Origin: an uncultured Candidatus Saccharibacteria bacterium
GTDB taxonomy: Bacteria; Patescibacteriota; Minisyncoccia; Phycocordibacterales; CSBR16-119
Reading direction: 5' to 3'
Assembly: GCA_964589975.1 (NCBI GenBank)
Contig: CAZPVH010000001.1
Location: forward strand, 164,853-228,852
Length of the DNA: 64,000 nt
Positions 18,510 to 24,427 of the stretch are shown here, piece by piece (position 1 is the stretch's first letter; each line of letters starts with the position of its first letter). A model generated the notes under the pieces. That model worked only from the letters and a program-made list of their open reading frames with translations. It searched no databases and had not been told where the DNA came from. The position numbers and the translations under genes were made by a program.

Positions 18510-19154
18510 ATGCATCCAATACAAGAAAAGTTACTAAAAATCATTAGTGAGAAGAATATTGGGGATCTCACACTACGTGATATCGGTGATCTAATTGCCG
18601 AAAAGTTACCTCAGAAGATTAAACACCACCTTTTTCAGCTTGAGAGGAAGGGGTTTATTGTTGTCGACAAGAAAAAAAAGTCTATCACTAGAGTGATCGG
18701 TGCAAAAAAGACTCCAAAAGAAATGTTTATTTCCTTACCTATAGTCGGATCAGCTAATTGTGGTCCTCAAACTATTTATGCCGAACAAAACATTGAAGGT
18801 TATTTGAAAGTCTCTAAAAGAATAGTTCCAAAGGCTAATAATGTATTTATACTTCGTGCTGAAGGAAATTCATTGAATAGAGCAGACATAAAAGGTAAGA
18901 GTGTAGAGGATGGTGATTTTGTCATTGTTGATAGTGAAAGTACATCTCCAAAAAATAATGATTATATTGTTTCGATAATTAGTGGCTTGGCAAATATTAA
19001 AAAATACGTGTTTGATAAAGAAAATTCACAAATTGTCCTACTCTCAGAATCTTCACAACATTTTGATCCCATATTTATACATCAAGATGATGATTTTAGG
19101 GTTAACGGTAAAGTGATTGGCGTAATTAAAAAACCTAAGTTTATTAGCCATTAG
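18510..19154 (+). CDS. LexA-like repressor (N-terminal winged-helix plus C-terminal S24 autopeptidase)
   Basis: wHTH N-domain; PIVGSANCGP cleavage-site region, S24 Ser (AEGNSL) and Lys (ANIKKY); very low GC. Confidence 0.75.
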   Translation: MHPIQEKLLKIISEKNIGDLTLRDIGDLIAEKLPQKIKHHLFQLERKGFIVVDKKKKSITRVIGAKKTPKEMFISLPIVGSANCGPQTIYAEQNIEGYLKVSKRIVPKANNVFILRAEGNSLNRADIKGKSVEDGDFVIVDSESTSPKNNDYIVSIISGLANIKKYVFDKENSQIVLLSESSQHFDPIFIHQDDDFRVNGKVIGVIKKPKFISH

Positions 19155-19162
19155 TTAGTTAA

Positions 19163-19927
19163 TTGATTATAATTACATTTATGAAAACTGTTGAGTGTAT
19201 AAAAATAAAAATTGAAAAAAAGCAGACACCTCTAGATTGGAACGATTGGAAAAATACTATCCAACAAATGGATTGTTTGACTGGCCTACAACACATCCCA
19301 GATGGTTCTATTGATTTAATTGTTACAGATCCGCCTTACGGAATAAGTAAACAACTAAATTGTAAAGGAAAGAGGCTTGGATCAACAGCTAAACTAGATT
19401 TTGATTTCGGTGAGTGGGATACTTTTAGCAAGGACTGGTTCCATATCGCCGTAAAAAAGACTCGTGGGTGGATGATGACTTTTTGTGCAAAAAAAGATGT
19501 TGGCTTTTTTATTGACACTCTAGAGAAAGAAGGCTTTATAGCTGTTGATGTATTGGTTTGGCAAAAACCTGATCCGGTCCCTCTTAATGCAAAATCACGC
19601 TTTTTAAACGCATGGGAAGCTGTTGTTATAGGTAAGCGTCCAGGTTCAACTTGGAATAGCACTTATGAGCACAATATAATCAAATGCCAAGCTCCAAAGG
19701 GTAAAAATAGATTTCATCCAACACAAAAACCAGTTGAATTGATTAAAAAACTTATATCATTGGCAACGAAAGAAGGAGATATTGTTCTTGACCCATTTAT
19801 GGGTAGCGGAACTACTGCGGTTGCATGTGTAGAATCAAAAAGAAACTATATTGGTTTTGAATTATCAAAGGAATACCACAAGATGGCGCTAAATAGAATT
19901 AAAGAGTTGCCCACTCAACTATTTTAA
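19163..19927 (+). CDS. DNA methyltransferase, beta-class (N6-adenine or N4-cytosine), M1
   Basis: motif IV LIVTDPPYG near the N-terminus, HPTQKP, motif I DIVLDPFMGSGTT near the C-terminus; 9 nt after the LexA-like stop. Confidence 0.85.
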   Translation: MIIITFMKTVECIKIKIEKKQTPLDWNDWKNTIQQMDCLTGLQHIPDGSIDLIVTDPPYGISKQLNCKGKRLGSTAKLDFDFGEWDTFSKDWFHIAVKKTRGWMMTFCAKKDVGFFIDTLEKEGFIAVDVLVWQKPDPVPLNAKSRFLNAWEAVVIGKRPGSTWNSTYEHNIIKCQAPKGKNRFHPTQKPVELIKKLISLATKEGDIVLDPFMGSGTTAVACVESKRNYIGFELSKEYHKMALNRIKELPTQLF

Positions 19928-20911
19928 TTTTTGGTCTGATGAATAAATAAGTTTTGCTTTGATATCTCGTGCGTCCTTAACAGATAAGGAGGCTTGCTTC
20001 CTTCTTATTTCTTTACCTTGATCTTTATACCTTACTTCTTTTACTTTTAATTTCTTTTTAAGTAATTTAACAATCTTTTTTGTATCTGCTTCGTATATTT
20101 TTTTTACAACAAAATCATTTTTATCAACGGTGGCAAGAATTATGCTTTTATCTGTCATGTATTTCTTCAAAACATCTTTTGAAATATCTTGAAAACTCCA
20201 ACTCGATCCTTTTGCCACTTTGTATTCATACATATTACCAAAAGCATCTGTAGCGTCATGTTTTGATTGTTCAGACTGAACCTTATGTCCTAAGCGCAAA
20301 GCTACTAAAACCTCCCAAAACTTGTTGCTAGTTAAAATGTCACTGGTGCCAACCTGCTGTTCAATTTTTAAAATAACGTCAACAATCTTTTTAATCCATT
20401 CAGAATAAATTCCAGAGCACAATCCCGTGGTTGTCTTTTTTTTGAAAGCCAGGGTTGTTTCGATCTGCCTAGGTCCCACATTGATCATTTTTCTATTATT
20501 AGTAATTCGTTTTGTAGCTTCAAATAGATACCCCGATATTATTATTCCGGGAACTTCGTAGTACCAGTCAAATACCGGAAACGGAACATTTTCATCTTGT
20601 ATGTGAGCAAAGATAACACTTTTGGCTTTGATCAATTTCTCGATTGTTGTGTCTGAAAAATCATTAAATGTCCAGGTGTGATTGGAGCTACTCTCCTTGT
20701 AATGCTTATACTCAAATTCGTTACCATCGTCGTCTTTTGCGTCTCTTGATCCTGAATGACCAGAAATAAGCTTATGATTCAACGTGTCAGCGATAAGTAC
20801 CTCAAATATCTTACTATTTGTTATAATGTCTGTAACACCGAAGGTGGCATAGAAATCAGCCTGAATTTTCTTGAGTTGCCCTATAAGGTTTTCTGTGTCA
20901 TTAGTGTCCAT
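19919..20911 (-). CDS. Putative restriction endonuclease with two tandem PD-(D/E)xK modules (single-chain pseudo-dimer)
   Basis: internal repeat: ...FEVLIADTLNHKLISG...DAKDDDGNEFEYK... and ...WEVLVALRLGHKVQSE...DATDAFGNMYEYK...; each has a D...EYK catalytic signature; flanked by two methyltransferases. Confidence 0.6.
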   Translation of the reverse strand: MDTNDTENLIGQLKKIQADFYATFGVTDIITNSKIFEVLIADTLNHKLISGHSGSRDAKDDDGNEFEYKHYKESSSNHTWTFNDFSDTTIEKLIKAKSVIFAHIQDENVPFPVFDWYYEVPGIIISGYLFEATKRITNNRKMINVGPRQIETTLAFKKKTTTGLCSGIYSEWIKKIVDVILKIEQQVGTSDILTSNKFWEVLVALRLGHKVQSEQSKHDATDAFGNMYEYKVAKGSSWSFQDISKDVLKKYMTDKSIILATVDKNDFVVKKIYEADTKKIVKLLKKKLKVKEVRYKDQGKEIRRKQASLSVKDARDIKAKLIYSSDQKLK

Positions 20912-20914
20912 ATA

Positions 20915-21736
20915 ATGAAAACTATATCAATAAAAACTAAAATAAGCACTACCGACGAAAACGCATTGATTTTTGGTGATGCAATAGCAATTTTAAAATC
21001 CCTACCTGATAATTCAGTTGATCATTGTTTTACTGATCCGCCATATAACATATCTGGATACGACAATAAGAAAAAGATAGGCTGGCTTCAGTCAAACAAG
21101 ACATGGGTTGAAGAAAAGAAATTTACAAAGATAGATGCAAAGTGGGATAAATTTTCCGACGACGATTATGTTGCTTTTACCAAAGCGTGGATATTGGAAG
21201 TTATGAGGGTTTTGAAACCAAACGGTAATATTATTATTTTCGGTTCGTATCATAATATCTATAAAATTGGTTCCATACTCCAAGATTTTGATCGAAAATT
21301 AATAAATTCTATTACATGGTATAAAAGAAATGCCTTTCCAAATGTAACGCAAAGAATGTTTTGTGAAAGCACAGAGCATATTATCTGGGCTGTAAATGAG
21401 ACACAGAAAAAAGCAAAGAATTGGAAATTTAATTATAAGGAAATGAAGGCCTTAAATGGAGGTGTCCAGATGAGAAACATGTGGGACATTGTCGCAACTC
21501 CAACATCAGAGCGAGCTCATGGTAAGCACCCATCGCAAAAGCCAATCGAGATATTAAATCGTCTAGTAATAGGATGTAGTAATAAGGGCGACGTTATTAT
21601 CGATCCATTTATGGGTAGCGGCACCTTGCCCGTTGCTGCACAGATTAATGGCCGGAAATACATTGGTATTGATAGTGAGAAGGAATTTTGTGACCTTGCT
21701 CTAAAGAGGGTTAGGGCTAAAGAAAACCGATTATAA
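20915..21736 (+). CDS. DNA methyltransferase, beta-class (N6-adenine or N4-cytosine), M2
   Basis: FTDPPYN, HPSQKP, DPFMGSGT; ATG only 3 bp from the divergent endonuclease start codon. Confidence 0.85.
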   Translation: MKTISIKTKISTTDENALIFGDAIAILKSLPDNSVDHCFTDPPYNISGYDNKKKIGWLQSNKTWVEEKKFTKIDAKWDKFSDDDYVAFTKAWILEVMRVLKPNGNIIIFGSYHNIYKIGSILQDFDRKLINSITWYKRNAFPNVTQRMFCESTEHIIWAVNETQKKAKNWKFNYKEMKALNGGVQMRNMWDIVATPTSERAHGKHPSQKPIEILNRLVIGCSNKGDVIIDPFMGSGTLPVAAQINGRKYIGIDSEKEFCDLALKRVRAKENRL

Positions 21737-21743
21737 TAAATTT

Positions 21744-22688
21744 ATGCCACTATTTAAAATATATAACAATAAAGTAACAAAAATTGAAAAACGTAATATT
21801 CTTGAAAAAGATATTCAAAAGATAATAGAAGAAAATCTTCTAGAGATATTAGATATATACTTCCTAGGTACAGAATTTGTTACTACTGATGGACGAATAG
21901 ATTCCGTAGGTTTGGACAAGCATGGGTCGCCAGTAATTATTGAATATAAGAGATCCCAAAATAATAGCGTTATAAATCAAGCTACTTGGTATCTAGAATG
22001 GCTACTTGATCATAAAGAAAAGTTTGAAAAGCTTGTTGAAGATAAGTTAAAAAAACATTTTGTTAATGAGCTAAAAGATACTATGGAGCCAGTAGATTTT
22101 CCTACAATTGATTGGATGAATCCGCGCCTTATTTGTATAGCGGAAAGTTATAATAAATTTGATCTTGGCCTCGTGAAGTTTTTACCATTTAAAATTGAAC
22201 TTTTGAAATATCGTCTCTATGATGATCTATTGTCTATCGAGTCAGAGAATATACAAAAAGGTATGAGGATTAGTGAAAGAACAAACTCATTAGCAATTGA
22301 TGAAGATAGTAAGCCTATTAGAGAATACGGTAAGGAATATTTAATAACTGATCTGTTTAAAGATAGTTGGGCAGAGAGTCGTGAGCTCTTTGAGCAAATT
22401 CGTGAGAAAATTTTGGAGTTGGATAGTAATATTGAAGAGAAAATAACAAAACTTTATATTAGTTATAAAACAGAGAATATTTTCTGTGAGATAATACCTC
22501 AAGCTAAGGGCTTATGGATCCATGTCACAATTCCTATTGATAATGTTATGAAAAACAAAATAGAACTTCATGACGTAAGCGAGAAAGGGCACTGGGGAAC
22601 AGGCGAGACAAAATTCAGAGTAGAAAAACCATCTGAGGTAGATCTCGCTGTAGATTATATTAAGCAATCTTATGAGTTTGGCTTATAG
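21744..22688 (+). CDS. NucS/RecB-like PD-(D/E)xK nuclease-domain protein with an unknown C-terminal domain
   Basis: TDGRIDSVGLDKHGSPVIIEYKR matches the NucS/DUF91 nuclease core; about 200 aa C-terminal region unassigned; 7 nt after M2. Confidence 0.55.
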   Translation: MPLFKIYNNKVTKIEKRNILEKDIQKIIEENLLEILDIYFLGTEFVTTDGRIDSVGLDKHGSPVIIEYKRSQNNSVINQATWYLEWLLDHKEKFEKLVEDKLKKHFVNELKDTMEPVDFPTIDWMNPRLICIAESYNKFDLGLVKFLPFKIELLKYRLYDDLLSIESENIQKGMRISERTNSLAIDEDSKPIREYGKEYLITDLFKDSWAESRELFEQIREKILELDSNIEEKITKLYISYKTENIFCEIIPQAKGLWIHVTIPIDNVMKNKIELHDVSEKGHWGTGETKFRVEKPSEVDLAVDYIKQSYEFGL

Positions 22689-22697
22689 TGAATCTGT

Positions 22698-23261
22698 ATG
22701 GACATATTTGCACATACGTTATGGGCGAATGCTGGGGCGAGGGGAGTGAATGCCTTCCGGAAGAAGAAAGGGAAGCCTCCTGTTATGCATGCTGGATGGA
22801 CGGGGTTCTGGGGAGTTTTCCCGGACCTGTTTGCTTTCGTGATTCCATTTGTCATCGTCATTTGGAAAGTCCTGACCGGACAGCTCGCACTGTCATCATT
22901 TGGCGGACATCACCTGCCTGTCGCCGGGTTCGACCTCGCCTCATACCTCTACCAATACAGTCACTCGCTTGTGGTGTGGCTCATTGTGTTTCTACTTGTA
23001 TGGATTATTTCCAAACGTCCGCGGTGGGAGCTACTTGGTTGGGCACTGCATATACTCATAGATATTCCGTCACATGATATCGACTTCTACCCCACGCCAT
23101 TTCTATTCCCACTTTCAGATTACCGCTTCCCGTACGGCGTTGCGTGGAGCAATATGTACTACATGATCATCAACTACTCCGCACTCCTCATCGTCTGGGG
23201 CGGGATCGCTATTTCCAAAATCCGCAAATCCCAAAAACCTAACCCTACTCAGACCATCTAA
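22698..23261 (+). CDS. YdjM-like membrane-bound metal-dependent hydrolase (DUF457 family)
   Basis: multi-TM protein with His-rich loops (HAGWTGFWG, HILIDIPSHD); moderate GC, so likely native. Confidence 0.55.
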   Translation: MDIFAHTLWANAGARGVNAFRKKKGKPPVMHAGWTGFWGVFPDLFAFVIPFVIVIWKVLTGQLALSSFGGHHLPVAGFDLASYLYQYSHSLVVWLIVFLLVWIISKRPRWELLGWALHILIDIPSHDIDFYPTPFLFPLSDYRFPYGVAWSNMYYMIINYSALLIVWGGIAISKIRKSQKPNPTQTI

Positions 23262-23317
23262 CCCTATAACTACGACCCATCCCATATACACCCACCAATA
23301 CATAACGTTATTAATCC

Positions 23318-23340
23318 CTAATTCGCGCGAATTAGCGAAT
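23318..23340. repeat. 23-bp repeat copy 1 containing the palindrome ATTCGCGCGAAT
   Basis: ctaattcgcgcgaattagcgaat; second copy at 23680-23702 with one mismatch. Confidence 0.7.
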
Positions 23341-23432
23341 GTAATAATTCGTAAACTAAGGTAGAAAAATATTGAAACAAAATTAAACAAATGTGGCTAA
23401 CGGAAATAAAAATTTGTTATAATTGATTTATT

Positions 23433-23696
23433 ATGAAGAATCTAGAGCGCATAATAAAAGCTCTTGCTAATGGCCGACGTATGGCTATCGTTAGATATTT
23501 AGGGAAGCATAAAGGTTCAACTGTCGGAGACATTGCTCGGAATATAAAGTTATCTTTTAAATCGACTTCGAAGCACCTTGCGATACTTTACGCCGCAGAG
23601 CTGGTGGACAAAGAGCAAACAAGTATTTTGGTTAAATACTTTTTACCAAAGAAGCCTCACCCACTGGTAAAGTTTATCTCTAATTCGCGCGAATAA
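23433..23696 (+). CDS. ArsR/SmtB-family winged-helix transcriptional regulator
   Basis: IVRYLGKHKGSTVGDIARNIKLSFKSTSKHLAILYAAELV HTH pattern; 87 aa. Confidence 0.65.
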   Translation: MKNLERIIKALANGRRMAIVRYLGKHKGSTVGDIARNIKLSFKSTSKHLAILYAAELVDKEQTSILVKYFLPKKPHPLVKFISNSRE

Positions 23697-23702
23697 GCGA
23701 AT
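23680..23702. repeat. 23-bp repeat copy 2 (overlaps the ArsR stop codon and abuts the GIY-YIG start)
   Basis: ctaattcgcgcgaataagcgaat. Confidence 0.7.
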
Positions 23703-23948
23703 ATGTATCATTTATATATATTGAAATGCGCTGACAATACTTTGTATACAGGTATTACGACGGATTTGAAAAGGAGAGTGGGGGAGCACAATGACGGAAA
23801 AGTTGGTGCGAAATATACGCGTGGGCGCGGACCGGTAACGGTTATGTATTCGCGGCGGTTCCGTAACCGTGCGAATGCCTCACGGGAGGAGGCGCGGATA
23901 AAAAAGCTCTCTCGGACAGACAAGTTACTTTTAGTAAAAAATATATAA
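23703..23948 (+). CDS. GIY-YIG nuclease superfamily protein (YhbQ/UPF0213-like)
   Basis: YHLYILKCADNTLYTGITTDLKRRVGEHN. Confidence 0.75.
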   Translation: MYHLYILKCADNTLYTGITTDLKRRVGEHNDGKVGAKYTRGRGPVTVMYSRRFRNRANASREEARIKKLSRTDKLLLVKNI

Positions 23949-23952
23949 AAAG

Positions 23953-23977
23953 AAGCGGCGCCCGCAGGGCGCCGCTT
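23953..23977. terminator. Terminator hairpin (mainly for the minus-strand gene)
   Basis: aagcggcgcccgcagggcgccgctt. Confidence 0.55.
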
Positions 23978-23995: not shown

Positions 23996-24337
23996 CTATA
24001 CGCCGAGATCATTCTTCTTGAAATTCTCGAGCCGGGTCTTGTTCGATCGAAGGATCATTTCGAGTGCCGTTTTCGCCGATTCCGCATTGTGCTTCTTCAT
24101 GATCTCCGGTGCATCGGAGACGCGCTCCATCCTTCTTTCATACATCTCGTATGCTTCGTTGTTCGATCTTTCGATATCAACCTTCAGCTCCTCGTAAAGC
24201 GCCAAGAGAATGCGTTTACGCTTTTCCTCCAGAGCACCCTGTACGATCGCAAACTTGCGATCCAAGACCACTTTCAGGTCTGCAACTTCCTTGTCTCCCT
24301 GGGCCTTCAGGTTCTGGAGGATTTCTTTATAGTCCAT
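23996..24337 (-). CDS. Hypothetical coiled-coil protein
   Basis: 113 aa, charged and helical; terminator downstream. Confidence 0.45.
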   Translation of the reverse strand: MDYKEILQNLKAQGDKEVADLKVVLDRKFAIVQGALEEKRKRILLALYEELKVDIERSNNEAYEMYERRMERVSDAPEIMKKHNAESAKTALEMILRSNKTRLENFKKNDLGV

Positions 24338-24396
24338 GTGGTAGGTTCGTTTTTATATACCATACACTAAAATTCTGACTTGTCAATAAAATGAAT

Positions 24397-24419
24397 ACGC
24401 CCCCGTCAGACGGGGGCGT
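24397..24419 (-). terminator. Intrinsic terminator
   Basis: acgcccccgtcagacgggggcgt. Confidence 0.6.
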
Positions 24420-24427
24420 ATATTACT

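Follow-up and report, generated by a model that had tools for sequence, protein, structure and literature searches.

Introduction

The classical binding sites of ArsR/SmtB-family regulators are 12-2-12 inverted repeats situated at the promoters of their own genes. In SmtB, CzrA and CadC the half-sites are TGAA/TTCA-like, resembling the GAAT/ATTC elements described below, and autoregulation is typical; the operator of NolR, a non-metal-sensing member, reads (A/T)TTAG-N9-A(T/A). Here we describe two nearly identical palindromic repeats that bracket the gene for an 87-amino-acid (aa) ArsR-like protein in a 64-kb stretch of DNA (hereafter ‘the window’) from an uncultured Candidatus Saccharibacteria bacterium (GenBank assembly GCA_964589975.1, contig CAZPVH010000001.1, positions 164,853 to 228,852). 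Comparison with related loci suggests that the repeats are probably the cognate DNA-binding sites of the bracketed protein, which would regulate its own gene and control a dispersed regulon.

Saccharibacteria belong to the Patescibacteria (Candidate Phyla Radiation, CPR), which are ultra-small, mostly uncultured, and have reduced genomes with few regulators; to our knowledge, almost nothing is known about transcriptional control in these organisms. Autoregulation by an ArsR-family protein through a palindromic operator is a well-known kind of system. Not well known are a constant two-site bracket around the gene, a site composed of four hexamers, its near-invariance across several Patescibacteria classes, and its presence within coding sequence. 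A literature search found the central 12-mer ATTCGCGCGAAT in no paper, and nothing relevant to the motif or to a regulon of this kind in Patescibacteria or Saccharibacteria. The repeats had been noticed in a first-pass annotation of the window, which proposed an autoregulated, dimeric winged-helix repressor gating a small GIY-YIG nuclease beside a defence island.

Results

Two palindromic sites bracket an ArsR-like gene

The two 23-bp repeats lie where they had been annotated. Copy 1 (CTAATTCGCGCGAATTAGCGAAT, 23318-23340) and copy 2 (CTAATTCGCGCGAATAAGCGAAT, 23680-23702) are direct repeats, identical at 22 of 23 positions, and their similarity reaches 30 nt (23311-23340 versus 23673-23702; 27/30 identical) at a spacing of 362 nt. 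The palindromic 12-mer ATTCGCGCGAAT, said to be used twice, occurs exactly twice in the window, at these copies only, even with one mismatch allowed (chance expectation 0.41; two occurrences reached in 4/100 shuffles); the corresponding expectation for the 23-mer is 0.00. Copy 1 also contains a perfect 16-bp palindrome, TAATTCGCGCGAATTA. Scored with a position weight matrix built from 172 related sites, site 1 reaches 38.2 and site 2 47.6, with the next best position in the window at -14; the matrix detects no third site in the 64 kb.

Copy 2 was also correctly described as encoding the end of the regulator: it codes for ...S-N-S-R-E-stop of the ArsR-like open reading frame (ORF), and its last base, 23702, directly precedes the ATG of the GIY-YIG gene. 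The full site 2 thus holds the last five codons of the ArsR-like gene and its stop codon (23694-23696), along with the first two bases of the GIY-YIG start codon. Copy 1, which had been assigned to the arsR-like promoter region, does lie upstream of the gene; it does not overlap the core promoter, ending ~75 nt upstream of an extended -10 element (TGTTATAAT, Table 1). An ATATAAT element occupies the same aligned place in the two closest related loci (L001 and L002), and a scan for sigma-70 two-hexamer promoters returned none for arsR. Judged from the position of the -10 element, the mRNA leader is very short or absent. Site 1 is a candidate upstream operator of the ArsR-like gene.

The bracketed gene encodes a protein that matches HTH_5 (PF01022) at 31.4 bits, above the curated Pfam cut-off of 22. 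An AlphaFold2 (AF2) model of the monomer (pLDDT 93.8) has the ArsR/SmtB topology alpha1-alpha2-alpha3-alpha4-beta1-beta2-alpha5, with helices at residues 2-11, 14-25, 31-38 and 42-54, strands at 59-63 and 66-70, and a final helix at 77-83. The first 45 Foldseek matches in the Protein Data Bank (PDB) are all ArsR/SmtB-type winged-helix regulators, the best being HlyU, YgaV, CzrA, CadC, PagR and NolR (TM about 0.8), together with SmtB, and a profile search of the PDB returned HlyU (3jth, 2e-13) and NolR (2e-9), as well as YgaV and CzrA. Scores against NCBIfam stay under the cut-offs for NF033788 (metalloregulator ArsR/SmtB; 50.2 vs 55) and NF033789 (SdpR autorepressor; 40.6 vs 100), and reach no named NCBIfam subfamily. 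Exact-protein look-ups of both window proteins and of P0001 found no record.

The 55 detectable homologues span 79-135 aa, and those bearing names are annotated as Patescibacteria. Their recognition helix, LSFK(S/A)TSKHL, is nearly invariant, and a subset ends in ISNS(R/L/H/Y)E, the translation of the repeat. None of the inducer-sensing sites described for ArsR/SmtB proteins (Cys in alpha3/alpha3N; His, Asp or Glu in alpha5; a pair of reactive Cys residues) is apparent in the family alignment, and neither acidic/His residues in alpha5 nor metal ligands form a conserved cluster; the window protein has no Cys at all, and its sole invariant His (H48) lies in the recognition helix. We therefore regard it as an apparently sensor-less member of the ArsR/SmtB family, or one responding to an unfamiliar ligand, since a missing sensor does not exclude family membership.

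A four-hexamer site distributed across Patescibacteria

Aligned sites have cTATTCTCTAATTCGC and GCGAATAGGCGAATAGt as left and right halves of a ~32-bp imperfect palindrome comprising four GAAT-type hexamers at 8-bp spacing (ATTCnC-nn-ATTCGC followed by GCGAAT-nn-GnGAAT). The outer arms are GCGAAT or the variants GAGAAT/TAGAAT, in any combination. When the core was relaxed, arsR-linked sites were found to have GCGC, GCTC, GCAC, GTGC or GTAC as their central four bases, with ATTCG...CGAAT constant; a variable centre between constant flanks would be expected if a protein contacts two half-sites.

The pattern CTAATTCGCGCGAATNNGCGAAT (21 specified bases) is present in more than 119 stretches, among the matches listed, of a species-representative genome collection, against about 0.3 chance matches in the whole collection by our own estimate. 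With taxonomic labels of metagenome-assembled genomes (MAGs) taken as deposited, every named lineage among the matches listed is Patescibacteria: Saccharibacteria, Paceibacteria/Parcubacteria lineages, and Uhr-, Doudna-, Kerfeld-, Veblen-, Wolfe- and Lloydbacteria. The remaining listed matches are MAGs labelled just ‘bacterium’ and six third-party MAGs labelled Gammaproteobacteria. These six are motif-bearing contigs deposited as ‘uncultured Gammaproteobacteria’ (L054, L073, L085, L087, L119, L121); L085 is nearly identical around the site to a Patescibacteria MAG (L113), so the labels are probably wrong. The viral contig collection yielded no match. Even the identical 23-mer is present across many Patescibacteria lineages. 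The motif is thus common within this group, and the first-pass annotation had asked whether it might be a common motif unrelated to the locus; as set out below, it is tightly tied to the arsR-like gene.

Site pairs accompany the arsR-like gene

A profile hidden Markov model (HMM) of the family identified 42 main-family ArsR genes in the fetched loci. In forty of them a site lies no more than 260 nt upstream and a second falls on or just after the stop codon, at most about 60 nt from it; the paired sites share one orientation and are 292-468 nt apart. By our own estimate, 320 nt of sequence would contain a site of this kind by chance with a probability of about 0.01. In 14 cases the gene terminates at the TAA of cTAAttcgc and the protein ends in ...ILSLL; five cases, including the window, use another frame (...ISNS.E). 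Because this main sample had been selected by the motif, four homologues were fetched by protein sequence only (P0016, P0034, P0037 and P0053; 49-53% identical), and all four proved to be bracketed by motif-like palindromes. With P0002 added, all five protein-retrieved homologues (49-87% identity) are bracketed.

Divergent paralogues with other recognition helices have either no sites (L120, L038b, L067b) or altered outer arms (L072), and site variants co-vary with the arsR copy that they flank (L122, L125, L025b, L072). The gene after the 3' site, by contrast, differs among ArsR loci, and may encode a YdjM-like protein, MsrA, acylphosphatase, TspO, RarA or others. Seven assemblies, among the matches listed, contain a bracketed arsR locus together with separate, remote sites.

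Two loci show related arrangements. At L125:2974-4261, which was retrieved independently, arsR is divergently adjacent to miaA and the upstream site is common to both; this miaA also has a degenerate internal site, ATTCGCGCGAGC, encoding the peptide IRLLARI. At L017:3295-3655, two sites 348 nt apart enclose the gene for a PspC-like membrane protein of 64 aa, an architecture like that of arsR, with no ArsR-like gene within 8 kb.

Sites at other promoters and within genes

About 140 of 166 exact-core sites are intergenic. For 111 of these, a gene begins no more than 150 nt away on the GCGAATAG side, most often at 17-18 nt from the core. Copies at other genes usually lie 13-50 nt before start codons, overlapping or abutting -10/-35 elements. 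Thirteen of the 52 strong -10 matches of related loci consist of the -10 hexamer, 6 nt and ATG, a frequency that suggests leaderless mRNAs. Two arrangements recur: in class I sites the outer arm AATAGT falls exactly at the -10 position, and class II sites abut or overlap the -35 element of a TTGCAA-17-TATAAT promoter. Judged by position, both look like repressor operators. Individual instances of (TG)-TATAAT + 6 nt + ATG can be seen at L046:920-975, L091:5347-5400, L107:1121-1160 and L125:3961-4003.

The genes directly behind sites encode acylphosphatase (3), NUDIX (3), TspO (2), SpoU methylase (2) and APH (2) proteins, as well as MsrA, Mpg, RNase H, ExoX-like, PIF1, RarA/MgsA, NYN, Mrr, PGK, malic enzyme, DoxX and YdjM-like proteins, and many proteins without a Pfam family. 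Repair and damage-control enzymes recur among these putative targets, although we make no case for a single pathway. The non-ArsR gene seen most often directly behind a site (8 loci, including L006, L007, L013, L049, L052, which has two copies, L118 and L120) has its ATG 13-23 nt after the core and encodes a ~580-aa protein that has no Pfam family and an N-terminal Zn-ribbon-like CxxC...CxxC (MKSEIKNCQNC...).

The motif also occurs within coding sequence. It lies antisense and in frame inside miaA, the tRNA dimethylallyltransferase gene, in nine divergent genomes (L010, L029, L030, L035, L055, L057, L065, L104, L105), where it encodes I-R-L-F-A-R-I, collinear with RIEQRFHQML of Escherichia coli MiaA and without insertion; in L034 it lies 25 codons upstream, in a different frame. 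We rejected the explanation that it is a chance product of a conserved peptide: neither the motif nor IRLFARI is found in 80 metagenomic MiaA loci (332 kb) that were collected without reference to the motif, so the peptide follows the DNA motif, not the reverse. Inside mnmA, which encodes a tRNA 2-thiouridylase, the motif is again in frame (L014, L019, L101, L116) and reads YSLIRANKRI, just before the C-terminal VRYRQPL segment.

Sites at so many other genes raise an alternative, that the motif is read by another factor (a second regulator, or RNA polymerase/sigma using it as a promoter element) and that arsR is merely a constant member of the regulon. The class I arm AATAGT does occupy the place where the -10 element of a leaderless mRNA belongs, 6-7 nt before ATG, and for most sites (about 80 loci) no arsR is present within 8 kb; that the ArsR-like protein has no sensor site points the same way. 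Such a factor would, however, leave it unexplained that only arsR is bracketed on both sides in nearly every genome, and that the site variants track the flanked arsR copy; moreover, the four-hexamer palindrome exceeds what a promoter alone needs. We consider this alternative unlikely.

Recombination between sites

The gene for P0002, the 87%-identical homologue, is present on two contigs from the Joint Genome Institute (JGI), L001 and L002, flanked by the same repeat pair and followed by a YdjM-like gene. L001 equals L002 minus a DoxX gene, which lies between two direct copies of the site; the crossover falls within the core (compared positions L001:1579-1690; L002:769-880 and 1340-1385). In both contigs, moreover, 54 bp of the ydjM 5' end (MDILAHTLWANAGARGVN-stop) are duplicated ahead of the first site; the duplicate ends where ydjM reads GGAGCGAATAA, a sequence resembling a site arm. 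This att-like duplicate is seen in L001 and L002 only; the window contains none. On this sequence comparison, the role of the sites as recombination junctions is real, at least as a by-product.

That the sites might be primarily junctions, bounding single-gene cassettes in an integron-like array that lacks an integrase, is a stronger claim. It would account for the loss or gain of DoxX, for arrays of the form site-gene-site-gene-site with one gene per interval (L002, L033, L039, L053, L097, L025), and for the different genes that follow the 3' site even between 87%-identical arsR loci. No recombinase is associated with the sites, however, and direct repeats of 30 bp can give rise to deletions without any dedicated machinery. 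Sites are few (2 in 64 kb), and their positions are orthologous in divergent genomes, both before the 580-aa gene and inside miaA. The structured distance from site to start codon, and the registration of sites with promoters, would likewise be left unexplained, and we judge a primary junction role to be very unlikely.

Folding of the sites as RNA

A palindrome that in many cases separates the stop codon of one gene from the start codon of the next could instead act at the RNA level, as a cistron-junction hairpin that terminates or stabilises transcripts or masks the start codon. The perfect-palindrome version does fold very stably (L125: -36 kcal/mol, z=-9.4), but both window copies and the typical site fold no better than shuffles (z=-0.8, -1.6 and -1.4). 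The commonest arm pair, TCTCTA and TAGGCGA, is not complementary, and variants such as GGTAGAAT preserve GAAT rather than pairing. With no U-tract at the sites and no match in an Rfam 15 scan of the whole window (0 at gathering score), we see hardly any likelihood in this explanation. A tRNA scan of the window also found nothing.

The GIY-YIG gene and the neighbourhood of the locus

The features of the locus and its surroundings are listed in Table 1.

Table 1. Coordinates of the sites, genes and hairpin at the ArsR-like locus, and of the adjoining restriction-modification (R-M) island.
Feature	Position in window	Strand	Basis or remarks
Site 1, ~32-bp imperfect palindrome	23311..23342	+	Core ATTCGCGCGAAT at 23321-23332; flanks TTAATCCCTA and TAGCGAATGT
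Extended -10 element TGTTATAAT of ArsR-like gene	23415..23423	+	By eye and alignment; 9 nt before ATG
ArsR/SmtB-fold winged-helix regulator, 87 aa	23433..23696	+	HTH_5, PDB profile matches, AF2/Foldseek, family alignment
Site 2, second palindrome copy	23673..23704	+	Core at 23683-23694
Stand-alone GIY-YIG protein, 81 aa, UPF0213 (BH0048/EF2693-like) type	23703..23948	+	Pfam and PDB matches
GC-rich hairpin, 11 pairs	23953..23977		Between GIY-YIG gene and convergent gene 23996-24337(-)
YdjM-like membrane protein gene	22698..23261	+	Pfam YdjM 21.3 bits, below cut-off
Methyltransferases (two, N6/N4)	19163-19927 and 20756-21736		R-M island
PvuII-like endonuclease	19919-20911	-	R-M island
PDC-S18/NucS-like (NucS_C/DUF5655) candidate defence gene	21744-22688		R-M island

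The GIY-YIG domain (Pfam 56.8 bits, cut-off 22.6; residues 1-72 of 81) makes up the whole of the protein behind site 2, whose PDB matches are 1zg2 (1.3e-16) and 1ywl (9.9e-15) and which has no match in the PADLOC defence library. The hairpin that follows its gene is probably the end of the arsR-GIY-YIG transcription unit; its T-run is on the minus strand only, and it would have to act as a terminator on the plus strand. The GC contents of arsR (39.8%) and the GIY-YIG gene (44.3%) are not distinctive in a window of 45.5%, and we therefore rejected a foreign insert by base composition; clear AT-richness is confined to the intergenic spacer and the R-M island. The island (19163-22688) has a GC content of 34% and lies 0.6 kb upstream of the locus, with ydjM between it and arsR. 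This ydjM, the upstream neighbour in the window, stands directly behind the 3' site in L001 and L002.

The first-pass annotation had read the regulator and the nuclease as one dedicated unit linked to the defence island, and the corresponding explanation, a toxin-antitoxin-like or defence-associated pair in which the repressor gates the GIY-YIG gene beside the R-M island, draws on the start codon abutting site 2, on the nearness of the island, and on the restriction-type genes that also precede the locus in L001 and L002. Comparison of loci largely refutes it. GIY-YIG genes are no commoner near arsR (4/37 ArsR-containing loci vs 6/85 other loci) and adjoin it in the window only; the closest arsR relatives have a YdjM-like gene downstream; the nuclease is of the ordinary, ubiquitous UPF0213 type; and several classes retain the regulator and its sites regardless of defence genes. 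Because the downstream gene is variable, the arsR-GIY-YIG pair does not appear to be a special nuclease switch or a defence module, and a dedicated pair is scarcely to be credited. The best reading of the GIY-YIG gene is that it is this genome's 3' member behind site 2. An R-M controller (C) protein with its C-box was also rejected (the winged helix is of the ArsR type, not Xre, ydjM separates the R-M genes, and the motif occurs at non-R-M loci), as was a REP/RAYT or MITE-like mobile palindrome (low copy number, 2 in 64 kb, cross-class conservation, no transposase).

Several further features of the surroundings may be recorded. In L001 and L002 the restriction-type genes just before ydjM are of the PDDEXK_1 and DpnI types. 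In the window, a 214-aa Peptidase_S24 protein (LexA/UmuD/phage-repressor type; 18510-19154), in which Pfam finds no N-terminal DNA-binding domain, is encoded directly upstream of the R-M island. At 24395-24421, between two minus-strand genes, lies a perfect 13+13 GC-rich hairpin, ATACGCCCCCGTC-A-GACGGGGGCGTAT, with a terminator score on both strands.

Discussion

The arrangement [site - promoter - arsR - site] is, by sequence comparison, a conserved module of Patescibacteria, and the interpretation that we favour is that the repeats are the cognate binding sites of the bracketed ArsR/SmtB-fold protein, an autoregulator that would also control a dispersed regulon. The co-occurrence of gene and site pair (40 of 42 genes, and all five homologues retrieved by protein sequence), together with the near-invariance of the recognition helix, makes this probable. 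Of the model proposed at the outset, the repeat as very probable operator of the bracketed regulator is supported, and a dedicated unit of regulator and nuclease linked to the defence island is not.

Our proposal for the window is that both sites are bound by the ArsR-like protein, the four-hexamer, ~32-bp site offering room for more than one dimer, and that the extended -10 promoter gives rise to an almost leaderless arsR transcript. Since sites elsewhere lie on or next to the core promoters of other, many probably leaderless, genes, repression would most likely proceed by occlusion of RNA polymerase. The position of the 3' copy means that expression of the GIY-YIG gene must pass through site 2 or start at it. 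The gene may be co-transcribed with arsR through an occupied site 2, which would act as a roadblock or form a loop with site 1; alternatively, transcription may start from the weak -10-like GAATAA inside site 2, 6 nt before its ATG. Co-transcription with translational coupling is the most likely course, because GAATAA is the only, weak candidate for a promoter of its own and the ATG lies 6 nt after the arsR stop. By either route, an occupied site 2 would block read-through or initiation, and GIY-YIG expression would depend on its occupancy.

Several points weigh against this interpretation. In the window and in L001/L002, the core promoter begins only 30-75 nt downstream of site 1, a distance less than ideal for simple occlusion, and the hexamers recur every 8 bp, a period at odds with one canonical ArsR dimer. 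No helical phasing is seen in the spacing of bracketing sites (Rayleigh p=0.3-0.5), which lends no support to a loop of fixed geometry. The notion of one coherent target pathway had to be rejected, the targets being heterogeneous and many without a Pfam family. Finally, the frequencies given here are biased by a locus sample selected by the motif (more than 119 stretches, among the matches listed), and ORFs in related loci were called with our own heuristics.

A more ambitious synthesis, which we regard as possible but doubtful, would make the 87-aa protein and its site a master regulatory system of several Patescibacteria classes: the site would serve as operator and core promoter for leaderless genes, be under DNA-level selection inside tRNA-modification genes, and confer portable membership of a regulon devoted to a damage-control response. 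If so, recombination between portable 30-bp sites would move genes into and out of the regulon, and the damage-control targets would comprise Mpg, Fpg, ExoX-like, RNase H, PIF1, RarA, NUDIX, MsrA, TspO, DoxX and the UPF0213 nuclease. 

The miaA genes illustrate how a DNA site can constrain the amino-acid sequence of a housekeeping enzyme (MiaA), and L001/L002 how putative operator repeats can serve as deletion/insertion junctions. Sequence alone suffices to recognise the regulator/site pair in Saccharibacteria, Paceibacteria and several other lineages, and the sharply defined 32-bp site, with its list of candidate targets, provides a testable entry point.

The closest described relatives are the non-metal-sensing ArsR/SmtB regulators, namely HlyU of Vibrio, NolR of Sinorhizobium, PagR of Bacillus anthracis and YgaV of E. 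coli, which share the fold, the size class and a palindrome at their own gene. HlyU and YgaV use Cys, in contrast to the protein described here, which has none and is only 87 aa long; none of these systems is known to have the obligatory second site on the stop codon, and the four GAAT hexamers at 8-bp spacing differ from the single dyad of NolR. The 12-2-12 operators of SmtB, CzrA and CadC are alike in being long (~26-32 bp) imperfect inverted repeats that can hold more than one dimer. Their alpha3N and alpha5 metal ligands are absent here, however, and the putative targets are not metal efflux or sequestration genes.

Beyond the family, REP/RAYT elements and integron attC sites resemble this system in placing a single-copy gene between two dispersed palindromes, in site-gene-site arrays, and in the one cassette-like insertion/deletion observed; they differ in that the bracketed gene here encodes a winged-helix protein rather than a transposase or integrase, and in the low copy number, cross-class conservation and promoter-structured positions of the sites. 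HrcA with its CIRCE element and NrdR with its boxes provide the nearest parallel for a near-invariant palindromic operator and a conserved regulator maintained over great distances at several unlinked promoters. The Patescibacteria module departs from them in its protein family, its heterogeneous targets, the bracketing of its own gene on both sides, and the sites within miaA and mnmA.

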